The position numbers and the translations under genes are program-made. Below are positions 417 through 61,988 of a DNA stretch of 64,000 nucleotides, piece after piece (positions within the stretch are counted from its first letter, which is position 1; each line of letters starts with the position of its first letter). The notes under the pieces are model-generated. The model searched no databases. It was given only the letters and a program-made list of their open reading frames with translations, and was not told the origin of the DNA. Origin of the DNA: a virus; the IMG/VR virus record IMGVR_UViG_3300044981_000029, positions 6,195 to 70,194 of that record; one strand, given 5' to 3'.

Positions 417-722
417 ATGTCGAGAGCTCGCCATAAGGAGCATGAAAAGCATCATCACGAACGCGCCAAGGGTGGCCGGATTGACATGAAGGTGTCTGGC
501 AATCCTGACGTATTCGAGGAGGCCCACGAGAAGCACAAGAAGGGCGGCCGCGTGAAGAAAAAGCACGAGATGCATGCTGAGGGCGAAAAGTCCAAGCATC
601 GCATGGACCGTCCGCGACGGGCGCGCGGCGGCAAGGTGCACGGCTCGGATCAGGCGCCGTTCAGTTCGGCGAAGAACTCGACCAAGACGCATGAAGAGGC
701 TGGGCAGGACGGTCCGGACTGA
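417..722 (+). CDS. Small basic His/Lys-rich protein with three xxxGGx[VI] motifs (putative internal virion protein)
   Basis: AAGGAAG RBS. Motifs RAKGGRI, HKKGGRV, RARGGKV. Shares a 25-aa block with the 57105-58148 protein. Confidence 0.75.
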   Translation: MSRARHKEHEKHHHERAKGGRIDMKVSGNPDVFEEAHEKHKKGGRVKKKHEMHAEGEKSKHRMDRPRRARGGKVHGSDQAPFSSAKNSTKTHEEAGQDGPD

Positions 723-11699: not shown

Positions 11700-11936
11700 A
11701 TGAATGATGACGAGCTAGCCAAATATATGAGCGTATCTGCGGCTCAGGTGAGGCGCTGGTCTCTGGAATATCGCTCTATGGTCGAGAGAAATGCTGAAGG
11801 AGAAGCCCCAAGCTACGGCTTTTCAAACGCTTCGGAATGGATCGCTCATTATGGCCCTCCACATTTCGGACTACCACCCGGAGAGCATGAGAAGTGGCGA
11901 ATCCTATTTCATTCGAGTAGCGATCCATGCCGCTGA
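11700..11936 (+). CDS. Hypothetical protein
   Basis: GAGGT RBS before ATG 11700; fills the gap in the operon. Confidence 0.5.
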   Translation: MNDDELAKYMSVSAAQVRRWSLEYRSMVERNAEGEAPSYGFSNASEWIAHYGPPHFGLPPGEHEKWRILFHSSSDPCR

Positions 11937-12454
11937 TCAAATCCGCCAGTAGGGAGGCCATCGGAGAGAACATCAAGGAGATGCAAGCGTCAGGCCATCC
12001 GCATGATCAGGCGGTAGCCGCCGCGCTCGAAACCTCCCGCAAGGCCAAGAGACGCAAGGACGGCGGTCGCGTGCACGTCGGGCCGATCATAGGCGACACG
12101 GGCGGACGGGCGGACAAACGACCCATGCACGTCCCTGACGGTGCGTACATCCTGACTGCCGATCACTGCTCAGCCATGGGCGAAGGCAACACGCTGGCAG
12201 GCTTCAAAGCACTGGCGAAGATGTTCCCCAAAAGTGCGGCCGCGCACGAAAAGGACGAGCCGGCCAAGCGCGCGGCCGGCGGCAAGGTGCCGATTTACGC
12301 TGCTGATGGCGAGTTCGCCATCCATCCTGACGACATCAAGGACCGCTGGGGTGATCTGGACAAAGGGCACCGAATATTGGACCATTGGCAGACCTCGGAG
12401 CGCCAGAACCATATCCATACGCTCAAAAATCTTGATCCTCCAGCACAGGACTAA
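11927..12454 (+). CDS. Putative internal virion protein with two GG motifs and a duplicated P..V.DG[AE][YF] module
   Basis: MPL.KS.S..AI.ENI.EM...G.P..QAVA.AL N-terminus; RKDGGRV...GGRAD..P..VPDGAY; RAAGGKVPIYAADGEF. Confidence 0.75.
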   Translation: MPLIKSASREAIGENIKEMQASGHPHDQAVAAALETSRKAKRRKDGGRVHVGPIIGDTGGRADKRPMHVPDGAYILTADHCSAMGEGNTLAGFKALAKMFPKSAAAHEKDEPAKRAAGGKVPIYAADGEFAIHPDDIKDRWGDLDKGHRILDHWQTSERQNHIHTLKNLDPPAQD

Positions 12455-12458
12455 TTCC

Positions 12459-12698
12459 ATGGCCGACGTTCCCGTGACTTTCGTCAATTCCGTGTTGGTT
12501 TCAGGCTTCCTTAATGGCATCGTCAACCTCAGCTTTTCGACGGCGCAGTTCATCCCAGACGGCGACGGCAAGGTTAAGCCTGCGGAGATCCTGACGGCCA
12601 ACCTCCGCATGGACCTGTACTGCGCGCAGCAGATCCACGATTCGCTGGCGAACATCTTGGAGCAGCAGACGAAACCAGCGGCGAAGGATGTGAACTGA
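12459..12698 (+). CDS. Hypothetical protein
   Basis: ATG 12459, 79 aa, coupled to the downstream GNAT gene. Confidence 0.55.
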   Translation: MADVPVTFVNSVLVSGFLNGIVNLSFSTAQFIPDGDGKVKPAEILTANLRMDLYCAQQIHDSLANILEQQTKPAAKDVN

Positions 12699-13171
12699 TG
12701 CTAATCACGTCCCCAGTCCGCAAGGCAGTTTTGGCCGATCGGGCTGAGATCCTGGAAATGTGCCGGGAGAATTGGGCCGACAATGGCCAGTTCACGCTCT
12801 CGCCAGCCAAGGTTGAGGCGATGGTGGACAAGGCATTCAACCGCGGCGGAACCATCATCGGGCTGGTCGGAAACGGGCGAATAGAGGGTATGATCCTGCT
12901 GAATATCGGTCAATTTTGGTACACGGAGGATTATTGCCTGGAAGAAATCCAGAATTTCGTGCGTCCCGCGTACCGCAAGACGACCCACGCCAAGGACATG
13001 ATTAACTTCGGGAAACGCTGTTCCGACGAATTGGGTATACCGCTGGTGATCGGCGTGGTATCGAATGAGCGGACCAGAGCAAAAATGGAACTCTATCGGC
13101 GCCAATTGGGCGAGCCCTGTGGCGGCTATTTTCTTCATCGCCCTGCAGGCGCAGCGGCATTGACAGCATAG
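12698..13171 (+). CDS. GNAT-family acyltransferase-like protein
   Basis: VRKA...D...I.EM, EE...FV.P.YRK motif A-like segment, LYRR.LG; directly precedes the ejection-type gene. Confidence 0.75.
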   Translation: MLITSPVRKAVLADRAEILEMCRENWADNGQFTLSPAKVEAMVDKAFNRGGTIIGLVGNGRIEGMILLNIGQFWYTEDYCLEEIQNFVRPAYRKTTHAKDMINFGKRCSDELGIPLVIGVVSNERTRAKMELYRRQLGEPCGGYFLHRPAGAAALTA

Positions 13172-13195: not shown

Positions 13196-16100
13196 TTGGG
13201 AAAAGGCAGCCAAACTACAACAAATTCATCAACGTCCTCGGCTGCCCCGGGCGCTACTGCAGCCTATAATAACGTCCTAGACCAAGCCCAGAACGTCGCC
13301 GCGACCCCCTATCAAGCGTACACAGGCGAGCTTACCGCCCCGGTAAACGCTGAGCAGCAGCAGGGCATATCGGGCATCAACGCGGCGGCTGGACAGGCGC
13401 AGCCGGCCATAAATCAAGCCGAAGGCATCGCTGGAGCGGCGGCGAATCCGCTCACTGCTGGCCAGATCCAGCAATATCAGAACCCATATACGCAAGACGT
13501 TGTCAACGCGACCGAGGCGCAGTTCAACAACCAAAATCAGCAGCAGCAAGCCGCGCTGACCGGGAACAACATTGCTCAAGGCGCGCTCGGGGGAAACCGG
13601 GTTGGCGTGGCACAAGCGAACCTTGCTGGCCAGCAGGCAGCGTCCGAAAACCCGACGATCGCGGGTCTGTATCAGCAGTCGTATAATACCGGCTTGAGCA
13701 CGGCTGAAAACCAGTTTCAGACCAATCCGCTGGCGGCGGCGGGGTCAATCGCCAATTTCGGGGTTGCTGGCCAAAATGCCGCCCTGACCGGGGCCGGGGC
13801 TCAGCTCGGAGCCGGTACAGTCGAGCAGCAGACGCAGCAGGCGGCCGATACGGCGAACTACGGGCAATATGCCCAAGCACAGGCATATCCGTTCCAGAGC
13901 ACACAATGGCTCGCTGGGATCGATACCGGCGTGGCGCCGGGGCTCGGCAGCACATCCACGGGCCAAACCACCGGACCGGCGCCGAATCAAACCGCGCAGT
14001 ATCTCGGCGCCGGGGTATCCGCCGCCGGCCTAGCGCTGTCTGATCGCCGGTTGAAGCAGGATGTCCACAAGATCGGCGCCATGCACGATGGGCAGCCGCT
14101 GTATCGCTACCGGTACAAGGGTGATTCGGAATGGCATATCGGCCCGATGGCGCAAGATGTGGAGCGCGACAAGCCGGACGCCGTGCACCATGGCCTCGGC
14201 GGCGTCAAATATGTGGATCTCGAGAGCGCCACCGATGATTCGATCAGCAAGGCCAGCGGCGGCGGTGTCGCTGGATACGCGGTAGGCGGCTCGCCGTGGT
14301 CGTTTGCCAATGGATGGGTTCCGACTGTCAGCGGCCTTGGCCACGCAGCGCCACCGAGCGCCAGCGCACCGGGGGCGCAGAATCCGCAGACCCCCAATAT
14401 CGATTGGTCGAAGCTTGGAACCACGGCTTCGCAAGCGGCCAATAATCCAGGGCTCAGCCAGTTCAACTCCAGCAATCCTTTCCTGATCTCTGGAGCGGCG
14501 AATCCATTCAGCGTATCGCCGGCATCTAATACCGATGCAATAAACGGTTCCATGAGCATATTGGACAGTGGATCCGGAGGCGCGTCATACGGTCCAGGCT
14601 TCGCGCGCGGCGGCGTGGCTGGATATGCCGATGGCGGCAGTCCTGCCGATGACGACCCTACGTTTGATCAGAGGTTTTATGGAGTGCCGGGCAATTCGGT
14701 AGCACCTTCGATCGTGCCGTCTGCCACTCCTGATCAGGGCGTATCGGGTGCGGTCATCAACCCTGACCAGCCGTACCGGATGCCGGATGACGCATCGGTG
14801 CAGGCTTGGCGCGACAACAATCCGTTGCCACCAACTGGGACACCTCCGCCGGCTCCGACCTCCGCCGACGATATGTCGCTGCCGCCGCAGATCACCGGAA
14901 GACCCGCGCCGGTTGGTGTGGCCGCAACGGCATCTGGAGACGATGACGACGAGTCGCCCGCGCTTGGCTATGCGCCCTCAAGCGGCGTCGCTGCAGCGAG
15001 TCCGCCCCAGGTTGTGCCAACCGACACCACGGCTACCACCGACGCGCCCACCCAAAACAAGGGCCTCGGCATTGGCCTTGGCCTGATATCGCCGAATGCC
15101 CAGACTGGCCTGCTCGCGGCCGGGCTCGGCATGTTGGCGTCTCGTTCTTCCAATCTAGGCAACGCGATCGGAGAAGGCGGTATTGCTGGCCTGACCGCAT
15201 ATGGAGCGGCTCAGAAGCATGACGAGGACATTGCACAGCAAGCCGCGAAACTGTCCAAGGAAGCCAAGGACCACGCCGACGAAATGCGGCAGAAGCAGGA
15301 GACAATCAACGAGACGGCTCGGCACAACAAGGCCGTGGAAGACAAGGGATACGAGCCGAAGATCGAAAAGAATGTGGACCCTGATACTGGAGCCACAACC
15401 TATCTTACGTTTGATCCGAACACGCAAAAGCTCACGCCGGTCAAAATACCCGGGTCTGATCTTGTCTCTGGAGCGAACAAGAAATTCGTGAGCGACGCTC
15501 CGCCGATCGATGAACGACGCAAGGCACCGCAAGCGAGTCCCGAGGCGCGAGATGAAAGCTATTACAAGTGGCTTCAAGACAATCGTTCGCCAGGTTATGC
15601 AGACATCGTGCGCGGCGTAGCGGACTACGAGATCGATCCGAACCGAGAAGCCAGCCTGCAAAAGGGAGCGCGCGATCGGCTGTACCGTGATGTTAAGCAG
15701 TACGATCCGACCTATGATCAGACGCACTTTGCAGAGAAGACAGGCGTTATTCAGAACTTTAGCAAGGGTGTTGCCGGTCAGGCTGTCAACTCGCTCAACG
15801 TTTCGGTTGCGCATCTCGGCACGCTGGCAAATCTCGGTGACGCGCTTCAAAACGGTAACCTTCCGCTGATCAACAAACTGAGCAATGCGGTTTCGGTATG
15901 GACCGGAAAGGCTCCGGTCACGAACTTCGAAGCGGCAAAGGAAATTGTCGGTGACGAAGTGGTCAAGGCCGTGGTCGGCGGTGTGAACAGCCAGGCCGAT
16001 CGTGAGGCCATCAAGCATCTGATCTTGGCGCAGCAAACTCCAGCACAGTTGAAAGGCGTCATCCAGACGTTCACCACGTTGCTCGGTGGCCAACTCGACG

Positions 16101-16387
16101 GACAGCGCCAACGCTATCAGGCCGGTACGGGCTTGAACAATTTCGATCAGAAGTACTTGGCACCAGCAACGCGCGAGGCTCTTGCCCACAGCTCAGGTTC
16201 GGTTGATCCGTCGATTTCCAAGATGGTCTACCCGAGCGGCATCCCTGTACAGCCAGGCAACGCAGCAACCACAGCGCCGCCAGCAACCACCACCCCCATT
16301 CCGCCGCCTGATCAGCGCGTCGTCGGGCAGACCTATCAGACACCGAAAGGTCCAGCGAAGTGGACCGCCCAAGGGTGGGTCCAGTGA
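13196..16387 (+). CDS. Large DNA ejection/pilot-type internal protein with embedded S74-like domain
   Basis: MGKGSQTTT N-terminus; Gln/Ala-rich helical region with YQNPYTQDVV and GALGGNR; SDRRLKQD...GPMAQDVE...PDAV domain; four GG motifs; C-terminal G.TY.TPKG..KW...GW. Confidence 0.8.
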   Translation: MGKGSQTTTNSSTSSAAPGATAAYNNVLDQAQNVAATPYQAYTGELTAPVNAEQQQGISGINAAAGQAQPAINQAEGIAGAAANPLTAGQIQQYQNPYTQDVVNATEAQFNNQNQQQQAALTGNNIAQGALGGNRVGVAQANLAGQQAASENPTIAGLYQQSYNTGLSTAENQFQTNPLAAAGSIANFGVAGQNAALTGAGAQLGAGTVEQQTQQAADTANYGQYAQAQAYPFQSTQWLAGIDTGVAPGLGSTSTGQTTGPAPNQTAQYLGAGVSAAGLALSDRRLKQDVHKIGAMHDGQPLYRYRYKGDSEWHIGPMAQDVERDKPDAVHHGLGGVKYVDLESATDDSISKASGGGVAGYAVGGSPWSFANGWVPTVSGLGHAAPPSASAPGAQNPQTPNIDWSKLGTTASQAANNPGLSQFNSSNPFLISGAANPFSVSPASNTDAINGSMSILDSGSGGASYGPGFARGGVAGYADGGSPADDDPTFDQRFYGVPGNSVAPSIVPSATPDQGVSGAVINPDQPYRMPDDASVQAWRDNNPLPPTGTPPPAPTSADDMSLPPQITGRPAPVGVAATASGDDDDESPALGYAPSSGVAAASPPQVVPTDTTATTDAPTQNKGLGIGLGLISPNAQTGLLAAGLGMLASRSSNLGNAIGEGGIAGLTAYGAAQKHDEDIAQQAAKLSKEAKDHADEMRQKQETINETARHNKAVEDKGYEPKIEKNVDPDTGATTYLTFDPNTQKLTPVKIPGSDLVSGANKKFVSDAPPIDERRKAPQASPEARDESYYKWLQDNRSPGYADIVRGVADYEIDPNREASLQKGARDRLYRDVKQYDPTYDQTHFAEKTGVIQNFSKGVAGQAVNSLNVSVAHLGTLANLGDALQNGNLPLINKLSNAVSVWTGKAPVTNFEAAKEIVGDEVVKAVVGGVNSQADREAIKHLILAQQTPAQLKGVIQTFTTLLGGQLDGQRQRYQAGTGLNNFDQKYLAPATREALAHSSGSVDPSISKMVYPSGIPVQPGNAATTAPPATTTPIPPPDQRVVGQTYQTPKGPAKWTAQGWVQ

Positions 16388-16404: not shown

Positions 16405-19400
16405 ATGGCGGATAGGTTCAAGCGGCTGATCGCGTATGATCCGTTGGCGGGACTGCGCAAGAAAAAGCGGGCTGATGGTGGGCCGGTAAGATTCTCCAAT
16501 TTCAGGAGGTCAAAAGATATCGAAGACCGTCGCGACGAAGATCCTGCGACGGTTCAGCCCACAAAACCCGGGCCGATAGAGCCTTGGCTGAGCCAGCAAA
16601 CGGCTGCGACCGCACACGCTGGAAAGATGGCACGAAGTCTCGGAGTTGACGATATTCCACAGGCTGCGCAAGACATTCACAGCAGTTTTTTGGAGCGCAA
16701 TTCTGCCGCTGATCAAAATCGCCGTGCTGGCGGTCGCGTCCACAAAGCAGGCGGCGGCGCCATGAGCGATGAGGACATGGGGATTGCTCCTGCAGCGCCT
16801 GCGGTCATGTCCGACGCTGACATGGGCATCGGTGCCGCGCCAACATCGGGCGGTATCGCATCGTATCTGCCGAAGGCGATCACGGATATTCCGCACGAAG
16901 CATATCAAGCCACGGCCGATCAGGTCAAAAACATCGGCAATGCGTGGACTGATATGCGTTCCCGACATGCCGCACAAGCCGAAAAGGATAAGAGCGCGTC
17001 AGGCTCGTTCTTCGATCCTGGCGCCATGCTCGGCTCGCTCAAGGACGTTGCCGACACTGGAAAGGCGGTTGTCAGCGCTGCTGCGGTGCCGTTCGCACCA
17101 ATCGAGGGTTCTGCGAAATCTGCTGTTGGTCATCCGATGGCTGACGCGGAACATATTATCGGAACAATCATCAATCCGAAGGTTGCCGCTCAAGATAATC
17201 CAGATTTGATGTACGAAAATGCTAAAAAAGATGTAAGCACTGCACTATCGGCGGCGCGTCCTAAGGGCATGGCCATGTCAAAGGCGCCGGGAGATTGGTT
17301 TCCAAAAATAACGCCACAGCCTCCTGAAACTCATATGTACATCAGGGGTCACGACCTCGGTGCCATGCAGGGTCGGGCACCGACTGCTGGACCATATGAG
17401 ATCCCAGCCGATGCGCCATCCTATCAGCACTCCAGCCAAATTCCTCCGCCTCCTGAGCCTGCCGCTGCAGCAAATACCGCTGCTGCTGGTGAGTTCGGCA
17501 TTGATCTGTCACGCGGTCAGGCAACCGGCGATTTGGACACGATCCGATACGAGGACATGGCGGCGCGTGGCGCCTATGGACCCGACGCGCAAAAGAAGGC
17601 ATCGGATTTTTTCAACAAGCAGTTTCAGGATACGCAATCGGCTGGGCGAACAGTTGGCCAGCAGACGGCAGGCGCGGCACCAATCGTTGATAGTCCATCC
17701 GAGGCAGCGTCTGCCGTGGGCTCCGAGGTATCCGACCGCGCTGCGCAGGCCCGCTCGCTCCAAGCGCAGACCGAACAGCATGCCGCAACCGAGGCCGAAT
17801 CGCAGCGCGGCATTCTGTCGGATCAGAACCGGGCGCTGAACGAGGCTATTCAGGGCGGTGCGCTGCCGGTTGAGGGACCGCGCGAAGCTGGAGAGGTCGT
17901 TGGGCAAAACGTCCGGCAAGCGGCGGCGGCAAGCAAGGCTGATTTCCAGGCAAAGTACAAGGAATTTGGCTCGCTTCCCGGCGAGTTCGATGTCAGCGCC
18001 GTACAGGGCATGGGAAACCGCGTCAAAAATGAACTGACATTCGGCGATAATCCCGTGATCGTGGATGAAGGAACGCCTGCGGCTTCCCGCGCCATCCAAG
18101 CGCTTGATGAAATGTCGCAGCCCAAGATCACCAATTTGGCTGACCCCCGCGCGCCACCATCGCCCGCTGACATTACCGCTGTAAGTCTCAAGGGCGTCGA
18201 TCAGATGCGCAAGAGACTCGTGGGCTACTACCAGCAGGCAAAGTCCAGCGGCAACGCGTCTGACGTTCGCGCCACGCGAGCCGTTATGAATGGGTTCGAC
18301 GGGCAAATCGAACGTGCTATCACTGAGGGCCTGTTCTCTGGAGATCCGCGAGCGTTGCAGGCTCTGCAGGAGGCCCGCGCCTCGTATTCGCGCTATCAGC
18401 GCACGTTCTCTCCGCAGGGTGCCGGCGATGACGTAGGTACGGCCATGCGGCGTATCGTGGACCGCAACGCCACGCCGGAGGAAACGGCAAACATGATCAT
18501 CGGATCGGGCAAGATCGGTAGCGCTGGTTTACCGGTTCGGATAGCCGATCGCCTTGAGCAGGTATTGGGCGCCGATTCGGATAGCTGGAGCGCGATTCGG
18601 CAAGCCATGTGGCAAAAGGCGTCTCAGGCGCGCAATTCGGCTGGCGCGATTGATCCCGCGCGATCGGCCGCAAGCATTAACGATTTTACCGGCAGTACGC
18701 TGGCACAGCGCATGTTCACTGGTCAGGAACGAGCGGCGATGCGCGCCCACGCCCAAGGCATCCAAGACCTCGACCGGAATATCGAGCAATTGCCAGCCAC
18801 ACAGACCGCCGCTCGGACGCGGCAGGCCTATCAGGACACGTTCGGCGGCGCCGACCTTGGCGCGGCGCCTCGGGCAGCGTTTCAGCGCATGGTCGAGGGC
18901 ACGGCCACGCCAGAGGAGATCGCAAACGGAGTTTTCAAGGTCATCGGCGCTGGCAATCCTGGCCATGTGGCGCGCACCCTGCAGGCCATTGAACGGATCG
19001 TGGGGCCGAACAGCGAGGCCATGGGGGCGGTGCGGCAGGGCGTTTGGCAGAAACTGACCCAAGCGGCGGAAGGCAAGGACCAGCCTGGCGCCCAAAAGGC
19101 CATGCAGGCAATCAACGAGTTCCTGCACGGGTCCGGCAAGACCATTGCCGAGCAGCTTTATTCGCCGCAGGAATTGGCCCTGATGGATCGGTATCAGAAG
19201 GCGCTGAAACTGACCATCATTCCGAAGTATGCGCGCACCAATTCGGACACGGCGCCGGCTCTGTTGGCTGCGGTGCGAAAGTACGCCGGCATGATCGGAT
19301 CTGCACTGGGTGTCGTAGGCCTCGGAGGTGCTGAGGGCGGCCTTTCTGGCTATGCCGTTTCAAAGCTGCTGGACAAGGGCGGCGAGAAACTGCTTGCCGC

Positions 19401-19602
19401 TCGGCAAGCTAGGAAACTGGACAATTCCCTCAACAATGTGGTGCCGCCCGCCAAAAAACCGGTTACGCCACCGAAATTCAAATCAGCGCGTATTCTGCCG
19501 ATGAGCCTTCAAAACGCGCCGCGCCCGCATGGCATCAGTGCGTTGCAAGGACCAGTGCCAAGCGCAGCCGACGAGAAAAAGAAGAAATCCGGTAGGCCAT
19601 GA
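16405..19602 (+). CDS. Second large ejection-type internal virion protein (start may be GTG 16384)
   Basis: >1000 aa Ala-rich helical protein with three GG motifs in the N-terminal leader and N.S.TA near the C-terminus. Confidence 0.75.
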   Translation: MADRFKRLIAYDPLAGLRKKKRADGGPVRFSNFRRSKDIEDRRDEDPATVQPTKPGPIEPWLSQQTAATAHAGKMARSLGVDDIPQAAQDIHSSFLERNSAADQNRRAGGRVHKAGGGAMSDEDMGIAPAAPAVMSDADMGIGAAPTSGGIASYLPKAITDIPHEAYQATADQVKNIGNAWTDMRSRHAAQAEKDKSASGSFFDPGAMLGSLKDVADTGKAVVSAAAVPFAPIEGSAKSAVGHPMADAEHIIGTIINPKVAAQDNPDLMYENAKKDVSTALSAARPKGMAMSKAPGDWFPKITPQPPETHMYIRGHDLGAMQGRAPTAGPYEIPADAPSYQHSSQIPPPPEPAAAANTAAAGEFGIDLSRGQATGDLDTIRYEDMAARGAYGPDAQKKASDFFNKQFQDTQSAGRTVGQQTAGAAPIVDSPSEAASAVGSEVSDRAAQARSLQAQTEQHAATEAESQRGILSDQNRALNEAIQGGALPVEGPREAGEVVGQNVRQAAAASKADFQAKYKEFGSLPGEFDVSAVQGMGNRVKNELTFGDNPVIVDEGTPAASRAIQALDEMSQPKITNLADPRAPPSPADITAVSLKGVDQMRKRLVGYYQQAKSSGNASDVRATRAVMNGFDGQIERAITEGLFSGDPRALQALQEARASYSRYQRTFSPQGAGDDVGTAMRRIVDRNATPEETANMIIGSGKIGSAGLPVRIADRLEQVLGADSDSWSAIRQAMWQKASQARNSAGAIDPARSAASINDFTGSTLAQRMFTGQERAAMRAHAQGIQDLDRNIEQLPATQTAARTRQAYQDTFGGADLGAAPRAAFQRMVEGTATPEEIANGVFKVIGAGNPGHVARTLQAIERIVGPNSEAMGAVRQGVWQKLTQAAEGKDQPGAQKAMQAINEFLHGSGKTIAEQLYSPQELALMDRYQKALKLTIIPKYARTNSDTAPALLAAVRKYAGMIGSALGVVGLGGAEGGLSGYAVSKLLDKGGEKLLAARQARKLDNSLNNVVPPAKKPVTPPKFKSARILPMSLQNAPRPHGISALQGPVPSAADEKKKKSGRP

Positions 19603-37003: not shown

Positions 37004-37036
37004 CATAAACCACGCATTTGATACCTTGTCAACAGG
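37004..37036 (-). promoter_or_regulatory. Sigma70-type early promoter, copy 2 (at the divergence point)
   Basis: Minus strand cctgTTGACAaggtatcaaatgcgtgGTTTATg, upstream of AACGGAGAA RBS. Confidence 0.75.
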
Positions 37037-37074
37037 TGGCTTGCATTTTATTTTGGGATGTGCAATCAAGGGCC

Positions 37075-52614: not shown

Positions 52615-54322
52615 CTACCGAGAATTATACCGGAGCATCGCTGGCTATCAATCAGTACGGGTTGAACTACAAGGATCTGGCGTCGAAAGAAAGAGCCCGC
52701 GGCAAATTCGAGCACATGAAGCTTTACCGCACTATTGAAGACAGTGCGCTTGTTCTGCAGTACGATGCGCGCGATGACCACTTCGAGGTTTATCACTGGA
52801 GGTACGAATGACTGAGGCACTGGACATCACGAGGAAGCTGGAGATTTTGGCGAACCTGAAATTGGGGGATGAGATGCCAAGTGAACTTGGTCCCATAACC
52901 GGTAACTGGATGTCCGGCATCTGTGCCGAGGCGCTGGCTGAGATTTACCAATTGCGCGGCAAGTTGATGAGTGCCGATGCAGCGTTGATGACATCGAACG
53001 TTCCGAATGATTGGGTGAGGCGCTCGGGATATGCCATGGCATCGCTCCCGATCGACAATTTCCGCGCTCACGTCCAAACCCCGCAGACCATCGAATGGTC
53101 TGTGGCGCAAGATCCCACGTCGTTCGAGCCTGCTGCTGGAGTCTACACGCATGCGATACTAGACAGCATGCGCGTGACGTCAGAGCGTATTGCCGCAGAA
53201 GCTCTGAACAAAGGCGCGCCGGTAGTCAACTGTATTGGCGACAACTGGCGCGATGTGGTGCGCGCGGGCACGGTGGAGTGCGATACGCTGCCTACCGATT
53301 CTGAACAGCGCAAGGTCTACGACGAAGGCTTGAAGCTGTTAGGATTGCCGGTTTCAGAGAGCGGCGGCACGGCGGATGCTCAATTGCCAGGACTCACCGC
53401 CACAATGATCATTATGGACGATCCGCACGAACCGCCTACTGAGACCCCAGTTGAACCATGGGGCAGCCCATTTGCGATGGACACGAGGAACTGGAAATGA
53501 AGCCCGATGTGATTGAACGTCTCCGCGCAACCCTCATTATGCGACCCGGCACCGCCGATTCGGACGTCAATGTGCTGGCTATTCCGGTTAGCGTACCTTG
53601 GGGCGATGTGGAGGACGCAATCAAGGAGATTGAGCGCCTTCGCGCCACTCTTCGCCTGTGCGTGCGCGGTCCGAACGCCGTCCAAATTGCTAAGGGTGAG
53701 CTGATCGGGTTATGCCTGAACGATGGCCCCAGCTACGCCGATATCCGGCGCGACGCCAAGCTCACGCCGTCCATCGAACCCGGAGAGCCCTCTTGAAAAA
53801 GCCCCACATCATCACCGGCAGCGGCCCGCTGATCACGCCGCGCATGATGCCCTCCGGCGGCGACGAATGCGTATCGCTGCTGGAGGACATGCTCGCCAGC
53901 GCCAGAAAGGGCGAAATGTCATGGCTCATCGTGGTGGCTGGCGGCCCGCATGACTTCGGCAGCGCCTTCGCCGGCAACAACGCGGCACAGATGAACCTGG
54001 GGCTAGACGTGGCCAAGGCGGACATCATTTCGAGGGTGAAGGCGCGGTGAAGTATCGACCTCATCGAGGATCTCTTGCTGAATCAATGGCCAGAGTCATT
54101 GAAATTAACGGTATCGATGAACTGATTGCCGCAATGATGCGTGGACTTGACTGTTACCCGAAGAGCAGGCGTCCGACACGAAACAATGTTACCGTAGAGC
54201 CATACAGTTTCGACAAGAGAATTAACTGGAATACCCACATCGTTTGCGTAAATGGGGACGCATGGGGCTTTACGGATGGACCTCTGTGTGACCCGCCATT
54301 TTGGCCTAGGCTCCAAGCCTGA
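52611..54322 (+). other. Inserted hypothetical CDSs between terL and portal (52611-52811, 52808-53500, 53497-53796, 53793-54050, 54047-54322)
   Basis: Chain of 4-bp-overlapping ORFs. Confidence 0.55.
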
Positions 54323-54573
54323 CCGTTGCCGGTTATCCGATCGGGCGCACATCCCTGTGGTGGTCATGGCGGTTTCTATGGTAATCATCGGCGTTGGTTA
54401 CCTCTTTTGGGGATGAAATCATGGGTTTGGTTCTTTACTGCCCGACAAAGGATGAGCGCGAATATGTTGACGACGTGATCGCGCGGGAAGCCCGCCAAGC
54501 CAATGAAAAGGCTGAGCGGGAAGAGGCCGAAAGAGGCTTTATCGCACTAAGATCCGTAGCTCGCGGTCGATAG

Positions 54574-56838
54574 ATGGCGGATCCTGCGCTAGACCTAGGC
54601 GACATCGAAGTCGTTATCGAGGACGATCCCGACGATAGCGTCAGGATGGTTGACGGAAATTTGGAGGTAGATCAGCCGGATGGCGGGGTCATCATCCAGT
54701 TCAACCCGCAGGACCAAAGCGATCCGGACGACGAAAATCCTGCCGATTTCTACAAGAACATCGCGGGAAAATTGAGCGAATCAGAGCGTTTGGCCATCGC
54801 CAATGACCTGATTGAGGCAATCCAGGCAGACGACGCATCGCGCTCCGAATCGCTGGCCACCCGCGCCAAAGGGATGGACCTGCTCGGCCTGCAGATCGAG
54901 GATCCAAGGGCCGGCGACGGCGCCGCGGCGATGGATGGCATGTCCGTGGTGACTAATCCGCTATTGCTGGAAGCCATTCTCAAGGATTGGGCCAACGCAC
55001 AGGCCGAGTTTTTGCCGGCGGACGGTCCATGCAAGGTCGAAGACGTTGAAGACGAGCCGGACCAAGTCCAAGACGACCTCGCCGACGCGTTCGAACGGGA
55101 CATGAATTACTTCCTGACCTCGATCGCCACGGAATACGCGCCTGAGACCTCGCACATGCTGTTATGGGGCCGGGCATTCGGAGGGTGTGGTATCAAAAAG
55201 GTATACCTCCATCCGATGAAAAAGCGTCCGACCTCGGAAAAGGTTGATATTCAGTATTTCATCGTGTCAGATGCGGCGACCGATCTGAAATCCTGCGAGC
55301 GCATCACGCACGTCATCCCGATGCGTCAATCCGTGATGAAGCGCTACCAGAGGAAAGGGATCTATCTCGACGAGGCGCTGACACCTCCGACTGCACAACA
55401 GAATGTCGTGGAAGAGAATATCGCATCAATTCAGGGTGTTGCGGCTGCCAAGGCGAGGCCGGAGGATCAGCCCTATACGTTGTACGAATGCCAATGTGAG
55501 CTTGATCTAGACCAGTTCGCGCCGAGGGATTTCAAGGGAATCCCGCTGCCGTATCTGGTCACCATCGACAAAGATTCGCAGAAAATGCTGGCGTTGCGCC
55601 GCGACTGGAAACCGGAGGACGAGGACTGCCAGCGCAAGCGGATGTACGTCAAGTATCCTTACGTACCTGGACCAGGGTTTTACGGGACTGGACTGCTGAA
55701 CATCCTCGGCAACTCAACCGCGGCGATGACTGCGGCATGGCGCATGTGTCTTGACGCCGGCATGCTGGCGAACTTCCCGGCATTCCTGATCGCCAAGCTG
55801 GGCGGCAGGCAGAATACCTCTGATTTCACGATCAATCCAGGCACTGGCACGTTGATTGAGACCAACGGGCAGGACATTCGCGAAATCGTGGCCAACCTGC
55901 CGTTCCATGAGGCTGGCCCTAGCCTTATGACATTGATTGACAAGATCACCGAGCAGAGCAAGGAGGTCGGTGCCTCGGCTAATATCCCGGTGGGCGAGGG
56001 CGTCAAGGATGTTCCGGTTGGAACTATGCTGGCGCATATTGAGACATCGACCAAGCTGATGGCAGCCACGCATAAGCTAGGCCACGAGGCCCAGGCCGAG
56101 GAAATCAGCCTGATCTGCGATCTGTTCCGCGAGATGCCGGAGGCGTTCTGGCGCGGCAACAAGACCAAATTCGCGCGCAAGTTCGGGTGGACTGAGGAAA
56201 AGCTGCTGCGGGCACTGAATACCGTCACGCTGATCCCGAAATCGGACCCGAATATCCCGAGCCACATCCATCGGCAGATGCGCGCGGTGGCACTGGTCGA
56301 GTTGATTTCCGGCCCGCTTGGACCTCGGATGAATCCCGATGAGGTTCTGAAGAGGGTTCTCGCGGCCATGCGCGAAGATCCGCGCGGGTTGGTCATTACC
56401 CCGCCGCCGCCATCCACGCAGCCCAATCCAGACGAGATAACTGCTCAAGCCAAGATGCTCGACGCTCAGACCAAGAGCAAAAAGGTCGATACCGACGCCG
56501 CTATCGCTCAACAGAAAGGTGTTCTTGACGCGGCGCAGCAGAAGTCCGACATTCAAAAAGACACGATCGACATGGCGAAAGAGCTCGTCATCCACAAGGC
56601 GGATATGGCCAAGGTGGCGGCCGACCAGAACAAGAGCAAGTCCGAGCTAGGATTGAAAGCGAATCAGCAGGCGCATGAGCAGACCATGGACAAAGCCAAA
56701 CATGGGCTTGATACTGGGGTTGCGGCGCATCAAGCCAATTTGGATACGCACCAAGCAATTCTCGACACGGCAGAGGCGATGAAGCCTGAACCAGAGCCTG
56801 AAGCACGTGCGCCGGCCAAGCCGAAAGCCAAGCCATGA
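54574..56838 (+). CDS. Portal protein
   Basis: 754 aa with acidic N-terminus. D..SR, NPLL.EA....A.A.AE.LPADGP.K, KKVY, LPY.VTID, PG.GFYG.GL, LDAG.LAN, PVGT.LA, and a helical C-terminal barrel. Confidence 0.9.
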   Translation: MADPALDLGDIEVVIEDDPDDSVRMVDGNLEVDQPDGGVIIQFNPQDQSDPDDENPADFYKNIAGKLSESERLAIANDLIEAIQADDASRSESLATRAKGMDLLGLQIEDPRAGDGAAAMDGMSVVTNPLLLEAILKDWANAQAEFLPADGPCKVEDVEDEPDQVQDDLADAFERDMNYFLTSIATEYAPETSHMLLWGRAFGGCGIKKVYLHPMKKRPTSEKVDIQYFIVSDAATDLKSCERITHVIPMRQSVMKRYQRKGIYLDEALTPPTAQQNVVEENIASIQGVAAAKARPEDQPYTLYECQCELDLDQFAPRDFKGIPLPYLVTIDKDSQKMLALRRDWKPEDEDCQRKRMYVKYPYVPGPGFYGTGLLNILGNSTAAMTAAWRMCLDAGMLANFPAFLIAKLGGRQNTSDFTINPGTGTLIETNGQDIREIVANLPFHEAGPSLMTLIDKITEQSKEVGASANIPVGEGVKDVPVGTMLAHIETSTKLMAATHKLGHEAQAEEISLICDLFREMPEAFWRGNKTKFARKFGWTEEKLLRALNTVTLIPKSDPNIPSHIHRQMRAVALVELISGPLGPRMNPDEVLKRVLAAMREDPRGLVITPPPPSTQPNPDEITAQAKMLDAQTKSKKVDTDAAIAQQKGVLDAAQQKSDIQKDTIDMAKELVIHKADMAKVAADQNKSKSELGLKANQQAHEQTMDKAKHGLDTGVAAHQANLDTHQAILDTAEAMKPEPEPEARAPAKPKAKP

Positions 56839-57080
56839 CAATTTCCCGGTTAACCGCAGCCGCGATTCCCGGGTGGCCAGCGAGGGGGTCGTCCGAGCGC
56901 TAACGAAAGGTCGCCTCCTGCGCCGCAGCGGTAGGGAAGTCATGTGACGGGTCAAGGCGACCGTCCCAAGGAATTGTTGCTGAAAGCGTAAATAAGTGCG
57001 ATATATGAGCCTGGCGACCAACGGTCCATGAGATGCAATGGATTGGTCCTTGAAGGATCTTGGATCTTCAGTTGGTCGCC
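56834..57080 (+). ncRNA. Candidate structured RNA / cis-regulatory leader between portal and GG-repeat protein
   Basis: Largest non-coding gap in the late arm, with several stems (56834-47/56934-44; 56946-65; 57013-22/57071-80 enclosing two hairpins). Confidence 0.45.
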
Positions 57081-57104
57081 TGCAAATGCATTCAGGTAGG
57101 AGAG

Positions 57105-58148
57105 ATGATGGCCCATCCGATGCACAAACACCGCCAAACCGCCAAGGAACACTCGCGCGTCGGCCACATCACGAAGGGTTACAAGTCCGGCGGTGCCGTG
57201 AAGGGCGAAAAGGCCATCGGCAAAAAGGCACTGTCCCTCCACAGGCAAGAGCATCAGGAACTCCACGCCGAAGGGCACAAAACGAAACACCGCATGGATA
57301 GACCGAAGCGGGCCAAGGGCGGCAAGGTCCACAAAGGCGGGAAGACCGTCGTTAATGTGATCGCTGGCGGCCACCCCGCAGGCGGCGCCGTTCCGAACAT
57401 CCCCAGTCCGCCGCTCGGTGTAGCTCCCGCCGCGATGCCGCCCGCTCCCCCTCCGATGGCTGCCAAGCCCCCGATGCCCATGCCGCCGCCTGGGGCGATG
57501 GCTGGACCGGGTGCGCCGCCTCCCATGCCGATGCGGGCGAAGGGCGGAAGAGTTGGGAAGGCTGATGGCGGATCCACGTCGTCTGATCGGCCGCTGCCGA
57601 CAACCAAGGATCTCGACGATATCCTGAAGAGCAATCCGAGCCTTTACGGAGCGCTCGGTGGCTACCAGGCGAAGATTCCCCGGCCGAAAGCCAAGGGCGG
57701 CCGCGTTCACCGCGCCGATGGCGGTCCCTTGGATCAGAGTCCGTTCGAGGACAACAGCACTCCAACGCCAATTCCAGCCAACCCGTTCGATTCGATGAAG
57801 ATGGGCAAGAAAATCAAGGTGCCACGCTCGGGGAAGGGCGCTACGGTGCCACCTAACGAATACGCTCGCGGCGGCGGCGTTAAATCCATCGGCATGAACG
57901 TCGGCACCAAGGTCCAGCGCACCGATGGAAAAGACGACGGCAAGGACATCGGCCGCGGTCGTGTCGTGACGTTCTGGGCCGGCGGTGGCGTCAAGAAGAA
58001 ATGCGACGGTGGCCCGACGATGCCGACTCGCGCCAAGGGCGGCCGGATTGAATCTCCGCAGGGCGTCGCCAAGGCCACGCGTCTTCCCGGCGGTTCTGGC
58101 GGCGGCGAGGCGCGGCTGGCCAAAGAGCACAGGGCGGAGCGGCGGTGA
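57105..58148 (+). CDS. Basic, disordered protein with ten xxxGGxx motifs (putative internal head protein/polyprotein)
   Basis: AGGAGAG RBS. Motifs YKSGGAV, RAKGGKV, RAKGGRV, KADGGST, KAKGGRV, RADGGPL, YARGGGV, FWAGGGV, KCDGGPT, RAKGGRI; Pro/Met-rich spacer. Confidence 0.8.
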   Translation: MMAHPMHKHRQTAKEHSRVGHITKGYKSGGAVKGEKAIGKKALSLHRQEHQELHAEGHKTKHRMDRPKRAKGGKVHKGGKTVVNVIAGGHPAGGAVPNIPSPPLGVAPAAMPPAPPPMAAKPPMPMPPPGAMAGPGAPPPMPMRAKGGRVGKADGGSTSSDRPLPTTKDLDDILKSNPSLYGALGGYQAKIPRPKAKGGRVHRADGGPLDQSPFEDNSTPTPIPANPFDSMKMGKKIKVPRSGKGATVPPNEYARGGGVKSIGMNVGTKVQRTDGKDDGKDIGRGRVVTFWAGGGVKKKCDGGPTMPTRAKGGRIESPQGVAKATRLPGGSGGGEARLAKEHRAERR

Positions 58149-58278
58149 GCTATTCCGAGATCAAAGCTTCACTCGCACGAGTGCTGGACAGGGGTGAGCG
58201 TGTTATTATCGCTGGCTCAGGACATTGGGCGCAGATGGCTTGGATGGCGCTTGGCGAATTGATGCAGGAGCGGCGCTG

Positions 58279-58530
58279 ATGTACAACCCATACGGCCCAA
58301 AGCGCGTTACGGCGGGATTGGTTGCTGATGTCGTATCCTTCGAACAGGAAGATCACCCCGCGTTATCGCGAAACCTTCTCCGCGAGCTGCGAGAAGAGCG
58401 CGCCAAATGGTACGACGGTCTGATCGCATCGAAGGACTGGGCTGATTTCGAGCGACGGCGCGGCTTGATTAATGGATTGGATAACGCGATTTCCCTTTGC
58501 GAGGCCGCAAAGAAGCAGTTAGAGAGCTAA
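58279..58530 (+). CDS. Small helical head-module protein
   Basis: CAGGAG RBS; DW.DF.RRRG.I.GL..A pattern, between portal and GroES. Confidence 0.6.
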   Translation: MYNPYGPKRVTAGLVADVVSFEQEDHPALSRNLLRELREERAKWYDGLIASKDWADFERRRGLINGLDNAISLCEAAKKQLES

Positions 58531-58574
58531 TTCATACTCCCGCCTCAAGCAGAGGCGCAGATAGGGAAGCACCC

Positions 58575-59303
58575 ATGGCCCGCAGGCCAGTGAAGAAGCG
58601 CAAGCAGCGCGCGACACCGAAGAAGACCAATGCTCGGAAGTTTAACAAGGTCATTCGGACAGTCATTGCCAAGAAGGCGATGGTCCTTAACCCGAAATTT
58701 GATCTCAAGATCGGCTCCGCAGACGATCCATTTTTCGTCCACCCCGAAACGATACCGGATGGCGTCGCGCTTCAGTGGGTAAGCGACGAAGCTCCAAGTA
58801 TGCGGGATCAGTGCGCTGCGTCCGGCTGGAAATTGGTCCCCAAATGCGAGCGGGTAGGCGGCCTATTCCTGATGTGGGCACCGCAGCAGGTCGCTAACGA
58901 ACAGCGCGACAAGAACATAGCCGTCGCTCGCCGGCAGATGCAGGAAATGCGCGACATGCTCCGCATGGACGTGCCAACGGATCATTCGCATCGCGTGCCG
59001 CTAGTTAGCGAATCGTTTCTTGCATCAGAACCCTATCAATCCATCCCGTCCGACACCCCGCCGATTGATGTTGAGGTAAAAGTCAACTTCCGTCTGTCAG
59101 CGCGTCTTCAAGAAGCGGCGGCTTGCATCGGAATTGATCCGCAGGTCTATGCTCAGAGACGGATTGCGCTATATTTGCGCGGCGAACTCGGTGGAATTCT
59201 GTTGCCTGTATATGCTGTTAGTCACACCAATGAGCGCGGGCCAAAAGAAAATGCCTTGGAATTGTTCGAAGGCGGTAATTTTAACATACAGTCGAGGATC
59301 TGA
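58575..59303 (+). CDS. Head-module protein, paralog 1 of the QW...GW..VP family
   Basis: DPFFV.PE.IPDG..LQW...GWKLVP...VGGLFLM..P. Confidence 0.6.
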   Translation: MARRPVKKRKQRATPKKTNARKFNKVIRTVIAKKAMVLNPKFDLKIGSADDPFFVHPETIPDGVALQWVSDEAPSMRDQCAASGWKLVPKCERVGGLFLMWAPQQVANEQRDKNIAVARRQMQEMRDMLRMDVPTDHSHRVPLVSESFLASEPYQSIPSDTPPIDVEVKVNFRLSARLQEAAACIGIDPQVYAQRRIALYLRGELGGILLPVYAVSHTNERGPKENALELFEGGNFNIQSRI

Positions 59304-59719
59304 TGGCCAAATCCAACCACAAGATGACGGAGATCGCTGAGACCATCGGACCTCGCGACAAGGTTCTGCTGGCTGCACTCGGCAAGTATTGGAAGAAAGA
59401 TTTCACGGTCCTTCACAGTCAGGTTCTCGTTGCCGGGTATATCTGTTCAAGCCGTACTGCCGGCGGCATTATCAGAACCGACAGAACGATTGAGGAGGAC
59501 AAGTGGCAAGGCAATATTGGCCTCGTGATCGGCCTCGGGAAGGGCGCATTCAAGGATGATGGCGTGGCGCAGTTTCACGGCGACAGACTCAAAATCGGCG
59601 AGTGGGTCTTGGTGAACCCGGCTGATGGCCTGTCGATGCACATCAATCAGGTGCCATGCCGGCTGTTCCAGGACACACGCATCTTGATGAAGGTCACCAA
59701 CCCGGAGATTTACTACTGA
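59303..59719 (+). CDS. groES: Phage-encoded GroES-like co-chaperonin
   Basis: VLV......RTAGGII......E.....G.VIGLG..AF......KIGEWV......G......CRL..D..I. Confidence 0.85.
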   Translation: MAKSNHKMTEIAETIGPRDKVLLAALGKYWKKDFTVLHSQVLVAGYICSSRTAGGIIRTDRTIEEDKWQGNIGLVIGLGKGAFKDDGVAQFHGDRLKIGEWVLVNPADGLSMHINQVPCRLFQDTRILMKVTNPEIYY

Positions 59720-59887
59720 TGGAAACCACGATCGATGATTTGGTGGAAAAGTACGGGGCTGCCGAAGGGGCCAAGGCGTATTTGGAAGTGCAGGTTTATG
59801 GCCGCTATACTTTGCCAGATGGCGTAGTGATCACATGCGCCTTCCCAGATGGCAGTGAGTTGGCCGCAGCTTTTGAGGCGAATGACC

Positions 59888-60241
59888 ATGCCTGACCTTG
59901 ACGACGGTGGTCGATCAGGATTCCTCGATGAGCCTCACGACGCTACCCCATCCGCCTTCATCCAATGGAAGGGCACCGACGTTTGCATGGACTTCTATTG
60001 TGATTGCGGAGCTCAAGGTCATTTCGATGGCGATTTCGCGTATGCCGTGAAGTGCCAGCACTGCGGCCAAATATGGGAAATGCCGTGCAAATTGTATCCG
60101 CGAAAGGCTAGTCATGCGACTGATCAATATTGGGTGGAAAACGCCAAGATGCTGGAGCCGGATGAAGAATTTTGCGATGCCGTTGAAGTAAATGGAGTCT
60201 GGGAAATGAGACCGCGACCTGTCCCGCAGGGAGGATACTAA
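59888..60241 (+). CDS. Cys-rich hypothetical protein
   Basis: GAGG RBS; FIQWKGTDVCMDFYCDCG..GH.D......KC.HCG. Confidence 0.6.
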   Translation: MPDLDDGGRSGFLDEPHDATPSAFIQWKGTDVCMDFYCDCGAQGHFDGDFAYAVKCQHCGQIWEMPCKLYPRKASHATDQYWVENAKMLEPDEEFCDAVEVNGVWEMRPRPVPQGGY

Positions 60242-61242
60242 TGCCACCGGATCTTGACGACGACGCAATCATCGTATCGCTGCCGATCGAGGACGACGGC
60301 ATTACCAAGATCGAGGGCGGTGGGGAGAAGAAGGTCGAAGTCGCTGCCGACGATCCTATCGCGGATCTGAAGAGCCAATTCAGCAGCATGACGCAGCGCG
60401 CGACGGCGGCCGAGACGCTGGCGCAGCAGACCGCCCACCGGTTGAAAGAGGTCACCACCGAGCTTCAGACCACCAAGGCAGCGGTTACCGATAGCCAACT
60501 CGATACCGTACTGAGCGGCATTCAGGCGGCCGAGGCCGAGGCTACAGCAGCCGAGCGAGATTTCGTCGCGGCTGTTGAGGCTGGCGATGCGATGGCCCAA
60601 GCCAGGGCACAGCGCAAAATGAGCGCGGCTGAGGTGCGCGTCCAGCGGCTTACCGAGGCCAAGGGTGACCTTGAGGAAGTCAAGACGGCAAAGCCCGTTC
60701 AGCGCACGGAAGCCCGCACCGAGCCGCGACAGCAGACCAGCGACCCGGTTGAACAGGTCATCATCAACGGCAAGGTCCCGCCGAAGTCGGCGCAGTGGCT
60801 GCGCGCCCATCCCGATTGCGTTACCGACCCCAAGAAGAATGCCAGGATGATGGCTGCGCACCAGATGGCCATCGCGGAGGATATCCCAGTTGAGAGCGAC
60901 GAGTATTTCGCGCTGATCGAGAAGACGGTCGGCGGCATGAAGGCTGAACCAGCGCCGCGCGTTGATCCAAAGGTCGAACTGAACGGCAAGCGCCCAGCGA
61001 GCAATGCGGCCGGCGGCGGCAATGTGGGGGGTGGCATGAACGGCGGGACATATCAGGTAGCACTCACCAAGGGTCAAGCGGAGGCGTCCGTAGACGGCAC
61101 CCACGTGTGGAACTACGACGATCCCAGCGGCAAAAACCGATTCAAGAAGGGCGACGTCATCGGGAAGCAAGAGATGGCAAGGCGTGTTGATGCGCAGCGC
61201 AAGGCTGGCCTTTTTGACCGGAATTATTCGGTGGAATCATGA
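60241..61242 (+). CDS. Capsid scaffolding-like protein
   Basis: Acidic N-terminus, long coiled coil, A.W...HP, A.H......SDEYF..I; lies after GroES. Confidence 0.7.
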   Translation: MPPDLDDDAIIVSLPIEDDGITKIEGGGEKKVEVAADDPIADLKSQFSSMTQRATAAETLAQQTAHRLKEVTTELQTTKAAVTDSQLDTVLSGIQAAEAEATAAERDFVAAVEAGDAMAQARAQRKMSAAEVRVQRLTEAKGDLEEVKTAKPVQRTEARTEPRQQTSDPVEQVIINGKVPPKSAQWLRAHPDCVTDPKKNARMMAAHQMAIAEDIPVESDEYFALIEKTVGGMKAEPAPRVDPKVELNGKRPASNAAGGGNVGGGMNGGTYQVALTKGQAEASVDGTHVWNYDDPSGKNRFKKGDVIGKQEMARRVDAQRKAGLFDRNYSVES

Positions 61243-61988
61243 AACCCGTCCGCGAGATCGTTTCCAGAGAAATCATCGATGATCTGTGGGGCGCTGGCTA
61301 CAGCATCCTGCCGCGCGCTCGGCATCCTGATCCGTTCCATGTGCCGGCCGAGATGGTGCCGCAGGGGCGGTCGTATCAGTGGTTCGACCTGAAGCACGAC
61401 AAGTTCCACTACGGCGACGATGAGCACAACACTGGCTGGGCACCCGTTCCCGCCGCGCGACATGACGGATACTTCATGCCGGCAGGCTTCATCGGTGATA
61501 TCGAGGTCAGCGGGCTTGGACTATTCGAGAAACCGAAATTCGAGGTGGAACGGGACCGCGCGGCGGCTATTCAGAAGGCGCAAGACGCTGGCGACCCCGC
61601 CAAGTTCTTTGCCGGAAAAGGTTTCAGCGGATCGGTGACCATCGGCACTCAAACCAAGCTTGGCGAACTTGACACAGTAAAGGCAACTGAGATCGGCAGC
61701 ACCAAGACGATTGAGAATATCACCAAGATTCCGCGCGAGTTGACTCCGTGCATTGCGCAGATATTCGAGGAGCGGGATCGTTTGGCCCACGCGCTTCAGA
61801 ATGCGTGGGATGACAATCTAGCTCTGACCGATGATCAGGCTGCAATCACCAAAAGATATAGGTTGGCCGTAGAAGAGGATTCGGGTGTGGCTAGATGGCC
61901 AACGCTAAATGCCATGATCCTTCCGTACGCCATCGCCATCGTCCGTAAACGCATTGCCGAGGAGGCCGAAAATGCAAAAACATCTTGA
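61239..61988 (+). CDS. Head-module protein, paralog 2 of the QW...GW..VP family
   Basis: DPFHVPAEMVPQG.SYQW...GWAPVPAARHDG....G..G.IEVSGLGLFEKP. Confidence 0.65.
   Translation: MKPVREIVSREIIDDLWGAGYSILPRARHPDPFHVPAEMVPQGRSYQWFDLKHDKFHYGDDEHNTGWAPVPAARHDGYFMPAGFIGDIEVSGLGLFEKPKFEVERDRAAAIQKAQDAGDPAKFFAGKGFSGSVTIGTQTKLGELDTVKATEIGSTKTIENITKIPRELTPCIAQIFEERDRLAHALQNAWDDNLALTDDQAAITKRYRLAVEEDSGVARWPTLNAMILPYAIAIVRKRIAEEAENAKTS

Follow-up and report, generated by a model that had tools for sequence, protein, structure and literature searches.

We analyzed a window of 64,000 nucleotides (nt; bases 6195-70194) from an IMG/VR virus record that is 70,194 bases long and has terminal repeats of 93 bases. 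In this window, a short tag centered on two glycines recurs in five proteins. The tag has the form [basic or aromatic]-Ala-x-Gly-Gly-x-[Val, Ile, or Ala] (x, any residue), and it often comes as a doublet with a period of 8 residues. Its carriers are the product of the gene that follows the portal gene (57105-58148), a small His/Lys-rich protein (417-722), a stand-alone module protein (11927-12454), and two large proteins, one of ejection type (13196-16387) and one designated internal (16405-19602) (Table 1). The analysis shows the tag to be real and conserved, specific to these proteins, and placed at junctions: N-terminal leaders end in it, it stands on either side of interchangeable modules in the large ejection and polyvalent proteins, and each half of the 11927-type module is led by it.

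The genome is podovirus-like. Its portal protein, used as a query, retrieved 18 GenBank phage records; the top match was the portal of the uncultured phage MW202675.1 (42.7% identity), and the portals of roseophages CRP-901 and CRP-902 and pelagiphages HTVC023P and HTVC027P showed about 29 to 32% identity. A DNA search of 54000-62000 against GenBank phages returned no matches, and neither did a tblastn search of the same collection with the 57105-58148 protein.

Table 1. Genes of the window that carry the tag or adjoin its carriers (aa, amino acids; pI, isoelectric point)
Feature	Position (nt)	Strand	Properties
Post-portal Gly-Gly-tag protein	57105..58148	+	347 aa; pI 10.6; disorder predicted; 10 copies of the tag, two doublets among them
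Tag starts in 57105-58148	57180, 57309, 57534, 57558, 57687, 57711, 57861, 57975, 57996, 58029		
Small His/Lys-rich protein	417..722	+	101 aa; paralog of the N-terminal part of 57105-58148; 3 tags at nt 462, 534, 618
Stand-alone "GG-led hairpin" module protein	11927..12454	+	175 aa; tags at nt 12053 and 12269
GNAT-like acetyltransferase gene, without tag	12698..13171	+	phrog_1249, E = 7e-9; Pfam GNAT match below cut-off
Ejection-type protein	13196..16387	+	1,063 aa; phrog_4287 "DNA ejection protein," E = 5.9e-27; tag doublets at nt 14249/14276 and 14600/14624
Large internal protein	16405..19602	+	1,065 aa; N-terminal leader ends in tag (nt 16468); doublet at nt 16720/16741
Portal gene (context)	54574..56838	+	phrog_1216; directly upstream of 57105-58148

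A Gly-Gly tag confined to five proteins

The tag was first noticed in an original prediction made from the letters of the window and their translations, and that observation is confirmed: a six-frame scan and the translations showed every copy listed there to be present at its place. We counted the tag in a strict form, [RKYF][AK]xGGx[VI], and a loose form, [RKYFH][AKR]xGG, and compared the counts with 2,000 per-protein shuffles of an 88-gene set (18,759 aa). The strict expression had 12 matches in this set, against 0.39 ± 0.63 expected and a shuffle maximum of 4, and all 12 lay within the five carriers. The enrichment in virion over nonvirion proteins that had been proposed as a check is thus borne out, with counts far above the shuffles, and strict matches are absent from early and replication proteins, in agreement with the first reading. 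The loose form had 24 matches (5.17 ± 2.3 expected). Of these, 21 lie in the five carriers, where a listing of loose matches gives 22 with two (113 and 114) overlapping; the other three lie in 37018-37473, in 47219-47590, and in the portal protein. In 57105-58148, the 10 copies originally counted correspond to nine matches to [RKYFHW][AKR]xGG plus KKCDGGP.

Simpler origins of the pattern were examined and set aside. Across the genome, Gly-Gly dipeptides show no excess (160 counted, 151.9 expected), and with the shuffles falling far below the observed tag counts, an artifact of composition was ruled out. A recent DNA repeat was likewise ruled out because the codons differ among tag copies. The KGG stress repeat and RTX/HemolysinCabind families, which are presumably present in the Pfam library, were rejected as known Gly-rich repeats, Pfam giving no family at E ≤ 10 for 57105-58148, 417-722, or 11927-12454. 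Our literature search, with subscription papers and supplements outside its view, found no description of such a tag.

The post-portal protein carries the most copies of the tag. Its predicted structure has a mean AlphaFold2 (AF2) predicted local distance difference test (pLDDT) score of 50.0, with values below 50 around most tags, and it has no PHROG match. Its start is preceded by AGGAG ahead of ATGATG (57105/57108), and its homologs begin with MAHP, MGHP, or MSHP. The source gene call, P0122 (57525-58148), starts at an internal Met and comprises only the last 207 aa (100% identity over 60% of the query), dropping the N-terminal 140 residues; because this N-terminal block is conserved in homologs, we take the long form of the gene to be right. 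Among 8,000 candidates scored, 493 belong to the family at E ≤ 0.001, none of them named, and each of the best 120 homologs has at least two strict tags (mean, 4.84). When 26 members are aligned, the columns of the tag vary little or not at all, and insertions carry additional tag copies. The description of this protein in the original prediction as a polyprotein or multivalent linker is a fair one for what is predicted to be a disordered, strongly basic chain of tags. The accompanying statement that the carriers are otherwise largely dissimilar holds except for 417-722, the paralog of its N-terminal part. This small protein (pI 9.9) has two strict matches where 0.006 would be expected and no PHROG match; its orthologs in the genomes G001 and G003 (126 aa) have three tags as well.

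Conservation and placement of the tag in related phages

Homologs of the 57105-58148 protein in four IMG/VR loci are 35 to 46% identical to it and keep the tags. The whole genomes of three related IMG/VR phages, G001, G002, and G003, have 11, 8, and 13 strict matches, respectively, against about 0.33 expected (maximum of 3 in 500 shuffles), and all of these, save one of the eight in G002, fall in orthologs of the five carriers; conservation in homologs, which had been named as a check on the motif, is therefore observed. In MW202675, four post-portal proteins bear the tag, as do an "internal virion protein D" and the next protein in order; peptidase M15 is among the annotations of its tagged proteins. 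The whole genome of HTVC023P is not enriched, with two strict matches in two small open reading frames and no match to the 11927-type module, and the scanned part of CRP-901 (24,225 of 53,013 bases) has neither a strict match nor a module match.

A wider sample was obtained with a sub-alignment of the 11927 family as the query. One subclade of this family, other than that of the window, comprises at least 584 IMG/VR loci. In the 80 that were examined, 112 strict tags were counted where 9.0 would be expected, and every one of them is on the same strand as the module gene. Gene positions were counted relative to the module gene in the 74 loci where it could be indexed. The module gene itself (position 0, 74 genes) accounts for 39 strict and 96 loose tags; the GNAT-like gene at +1 (64 genes) for 0 and 2; a large protein of about 1,037 aa at +2 (61 genes) for 33 and 145; a further large protein at +3 (36 genes) for 29 and 43; and the upstream tail genes at -1 to -8 (390 genes) for 1 and 11. 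The gene order is well kept: by BLAST, all 64 loci with a gene at +1 have a GNAT-like homolog there, homologs of 13196-16387 stand at +2 in 55 loci, and homologs of the gp10-like gene 9413-11470 stand at -2 in 55. In the large proteins of the 80 loci, the spacing between successive [AKRQ]xGG motifs peaks at 8 residues (27 cases), followed by 4 (13 cases) and 21 (10 cases), which shows the doublets of the first reading to be real; their consensus in the related loci is xAxGGR[AIV]G[YR]A[SD]GGx[VP].

Comparison of orthologs places the tag at the borders of inserted modules. The ortholog of 16405-19602 in G003 (L018:17568-18980) aligns to it in two blocks, residues 22-1063 with its residues 323-1328 and residues 2-28 with its residues 10-36; between these blocks it has a 290-aa insert that combines an inorganic-pyrophosphatase (InPase) effector domain (PF18823, E = 1.3e-45) with another module, unnamed and some 125 residues long. 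Tags stand at residues 30, 190, and 323 of this ortholog, and the single tag of 16405-19602 aligns to both outer copies. The G003 ortholog of 13196-16387 has a 60-residue insert inside a doublet, flanked by a duplicated GYADGG. The 13196-16387 protein itself contains a Peptidase_S74 domain (residues 282-330; PF13884, E = 6e-9; window 14039-14230, corresponding to residues 282-346) that is followed by its doublets; relative to the G002 and G003 orthologs, where the sequence at this point is ARGGRV and DGGGVA, this domain is an insertion beside tags. Thus, large indels between orthologs were bounded by tag copies in three of three cases examined, a small and hand-picked sample. The self-cleaving chaperone domain of the S74 type lies internally in this protein and not at its C terminus. 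Apart from S74, no effector domain was detected by Pfam or PHROG in the five carriers of the window, and 16405-19602 has no recognized domain in either.

The 11927-12454 module and its neighborhood

The protein encoded by 11927-12454 begins with a helical hairpin. Two beta units follow, each preceded by a tag; a loop separates the first unit from the tag of the second, which contains VPIxAAxGE, and helices form the C terminus. The fold is predicted with moderate confidence (AF2 pLDDT, 78.1), and in the model the residues after GG start beta strands. G46 and G47 are invariant in the family alignment, and H50 is nearly so. H50, R61, D63, N88, E129, H148, and D152 are conserved polar residues, and the C terminus ends in a conserved L..PP..D tail; this pattern in the sequence suggests a site for catalysis or metal binding and a tail used in docking. 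No counterpart was found among solved folds: the best Foldseek match in the PDB had an E value of 0.97, the wide VIA-align comparison gave Z scores of at most 6.0, confined to the helical hairpin (residues 8 to 46), and matches in BFVD were to uncharacterized phage proteins only. A protein-atlas search returned a crAss_CARG1 cluster at the weak score of 0.76, which is below lead level.

The family is large: it has 158 close homologs and, at E ≤ 0.001, 8,474 representatives of clusters. Among GenBank phages, MW202675 gives the only full-length match. From its first tag onward, the module often forms the C-terminal end of proteins of 250 to 1,600 aa. ART-PolyVal was found in 8 of 10 long module-bearing homologs at E ≤ 0.001 (4 of the 10 above the Pfam cut-off), and these long ART-type proteins have N-terminal leaders ending in a tag, resembling the leader of 16405-19602. 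In gene order, 11927-12454 occupies what we take to be the place of the tail needle and first ejection genes in P22. Between it and the ejection-type gene lies the GNAT-like gene, a homolog of which is similarly placed in MW202675; its product could modify cargo or itself be cargo.

Several other genes of the genome drew our attention. The gene 59303-59719 encodes a GroES-like co-chaperonin (Cpn10, 23.3 bits; phrog_3188) whose loop TAGGII resembles the tag in letters. Mimicry of the GroES mobile loop was considered and dropped, as most tags have Arg or Lys at the first hydrophobic position of GroES. On the 3' side of this gene, 60241-61242 encodes an acidic 333-aa protein with eight GG dipeptides against 1.8 expected (none of 2,000 shuffles reached 8); it has one match to [AKR]xGGx[VI] and none to the strict expression. 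Two HNH/endonuclease VII genes occur within the head-tail module (window 2940-3473 and L021:4164-5306), one of them directly 3' of the major head protein gene (L021:3106-4020).

A proposed processing site and its alternatives

Our favored reading is that the motif is a junction and leader tag of packed and ejected proteins and, most likely, a processing site cut just before Ala; we put its probability at about 45%. A cut at this point is favored because tags flank every inserted module, end leaders, and match a precedent in phage T5. We infer that the carriers lie inside the virion and that the tag is cut. The internal location draws on the ejection-protein match of 13196-16387, the annotations in MW202675, and the place of the 11927-type module at the end of ART-PolyVal proteins. 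In the mechanism we propose, the tag would serve as a proteolytic site, as at R1127/AEGG in T5 pb2 (the slash marking the cut), and leaders and modules would be separated during assembly or after ejection. The 57105-58148 product would then give rise to a set of small basic internal peptides. The protease might come from the host, or the GG-led hairpin module, which always accompanies the tag, might fill this role; for P22 gp20, a review mentions that cleavage by a host enzyme may be needed (PMC8954989). This reading retains one part of the original prediction, which had proposed a shared address or cleavage tag for cargo: the tag is conserved and specific to a few ejection- or internal-type proteins of the virion module. 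The ubiquitin-like and T4-like schemes offered with it found no support, as set out below.

The closest precedents come from tape measure proteins. T5 pb2 is cleaved after R1127 (PMC10038345), and the sequence at the cut, FVPR/AEGGMMYPG...GEHGTEVVTP, contains one of only two loose matches in its 1,219 residues. Lambda gpH is cut to gpH* and gpHC in its Gly-rich C-terminal region by a catalyst that is stated to be unknown (PMC12617516). It also has two loose matches, FATGGFT at 733 and YATGGYV at 778, which flank GEFVF within the Gly-rich region, and a hypothetical cut between F733 and A734 would give fragments of 79.8 and 12.5 kDa, compared with published estimates of about 78 and 14. The short basic/aromatic-Ala-x-Gly-Gly pattern of the present carriers is shared by these two proteins, in which it stands at or near the cut, and both of them leave the virion before the DNA. 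The carriers here differ in being podovirus internal- or ejection-type proteins and a disordered post-portal protein, with up to 10 copies each. The profile of the 11927 family gave a weak match to the tape measure protein of mycobacteriophage Douge (16.1 bits, E = 0.09) over the pattern GG..G.G.GR.D....V..GE[FY]; the stretches matched are unresolved in the structure (PMC13033339). The lambda-type family PF09718 (Tape_meas_lam_C) had no match in the genome at E ≤ 10.

Several observations weigh against cutting at the tag. The lineage is without a cultured member, and cutting has yet to be seen in it. Models of S77-, S78-, and S49-type proteases (PF03420, PF04586, and PF01343) gave no matches in the genome at E ≤ 1, the Prok-JAB and Ulp1 (C48) models gave none either, and about 30 proteins of the virion module yielded no named protease in Pfam and PHROG, an unrecognized one being possible. 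The residue before Ala varies (R, K, Y, F, H, or M), which would be unusual for a single protease, and cutting 57105-58148 at all tags would leave peptides of down to 8 residues. The 11927 profile scores gpH at 2.1 bits and pb2 at -1.9 bits, where shuffled sequences reach 8.1; the likeness to these proteins appears to lie at the level of the motif only. Finally, the cargo protein C1 of Bacteroides phage crAss001 (gp45), a packaged and ejected cargo of a short-tailed phage, as the present carriers probably are, has parts on both sides of the portal, and the string "cleav" occurs 0 times in the paper that describes it (Bayfield et al. 2023, PMC10172136). The corresponding family PF25725 (crAss_CARG1) had no match in the genome at E ≤ 10.

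Internal proteins of T4 have a capsid-targeting sequence that is removed by the prohead protease gp21, which cleaves at L/I-x-E. The present carriers resemble them in having a short N-terminal leader followed by a conserved site on packaged proteins, with small internal peptides as a possible product. The T4-like scheme of the original prediction finds no support on two counts: the site is A-x-G-G here and not L/I-x-E, and the dedicated S77 protease of T4 has no counterpart among the model matches. In adenovirus, African swine fever virus, and poxviruses, core proteins are matured at GG-X or AG-X sites by Ulp1-like proteases. Gly-Gly sites likewise punctuate virion-internal proteins there, and we regard the likeness as an analogy only; those enzymes cut after Gly-Gly, and the C48/Ulp1 model found nothing here. 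The suggestion of ubiquitin-like cutting after GG is unsupported because the tags lie in predicted disorder, with nothing folded upstream of them in 57105-58148, the JAB and C48 models were null, and the T5 cut precedes A-x-G-G.

Iyer, Burroughs, Anand, de Souza, and Aravind (2017, PMC5512222) predict that polyvalent proteins, which are strings of swappable modules, are packed into the head and injected. Relatives of the carriers show this kind of makeup: the 11927-type module ends ART-PolyVal proteins, and an InPase of the polyvalent repertoire is found in the G003 ortholog of 16405-19602. In contrast to the proteins described here, no Gly-Gly junction tag is given for them in the accessible part of that paper, where "glycine" occurs 0 times in the main text.

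A different use of the same motif would be as a docking or threading tag that stays uncut, its copies binding a common partner in the procapsid (portal, scaffold, the inner face of the capsid, or the 11927-type module) and thereby loading cargo or ordering its exit; carriers with many copies would act as multivalent glue. The location of tags in predicted disordered stretches and the variation of copy number among homologs, as in linear motifs driven by avidity, fit this idea, as does the co-occurrence of tag and module in G000-G003 and MW202675, neither being found in HTVC023P or in the scanned part of CRP-901. The tagged N-terminal leaders also recall the capsid-targeting sequences of T4. 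The crAss001 protein gp45, described as spanning the portal uncut (PMC10172136), would be a parallel. However, a pure address label need not flank inserted modules on both sides, as the tag does, and the one site with experimental data, that of T5, is a cut one. Nor did a partner for the tag emerge. Modeling residues 138-215 of the 57105 family in complex with the 11927 family, without control runs, gave a score of 0.00, which we weigh neither way on binding. On balance we hold docking to be a possibility on the unlikely side.

We consider it improbable that the tag is a structural seam without a specific reader, that is, a Gly-Gly hinge and short strand that would let modules unfold and thread the tail channel independently, its coding sequence perhaps serving as a recombination seam. 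The tags do stand exactly at indel borders and are duplicated around inserts, beta strands begin after GG in the 11927 model, and the 8-residue doublet suggests a small hairpin. Conservation nevertheless reaches past the two glycines (position -2 is Ala, position -3 basic or aromatic, and position +2 Val or Ile), in invariant columns and across homologs of 35 to 46% identity, which argues for recognition, and the differing codons of the copies make DNA microhomology a weak explanation. Binding to nucleic acid, with the tag as a charge-neutralizing motif of the RGG or AT-hook kind in basic internal proteins that condense packaged DNA, would accord with the strongly basic character of 57105-58148 and 417-722 (pI 10.6 and 9.9) and with the many copies of the form R/K-A-K/R-G-G-R/K-V. 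Against this, the acidic or neutral tags YADGGSP, FAGGGVA, and MAYGGLA occur in 13196-16387, an acidic protein (pI 4.9), and among the large proteins encoded by related loci, so that charge follows the carrier and not the tag; we regard this explanation as very improbable.

Returning to the processing site, a bolder version of it would make Ala-x-Gly-Gly a general processing code for proteins that exit tailed phages before the DNA, covering cargo polyproteins of podoviruses as well as gpH* and pb2. The protease, or a cofactor of it, would be the GG-led GE[FY]V hairpin module, represented by 11927-12454 with H50, R61, D63, E129, H148, and D152, and the post-portal protein would be a polyprotein giving about ten small basic internal peptides. 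We offer this version as a speculation, and a doubtful one.

Little is known of the way in which podoviruses choose, load, and release internal proteins, and the cutting of lambda gpH and T5 pb2 has been an open question for decades. A tag found at every joint examined, and at the one mapped cut of a tape measure protein, provides a concrete site that can be mutated in laboratory phages. It also provides a simple sequence marker for injected cargo and for module borders in the thousands of uncultured phages that have an 11927-type module.

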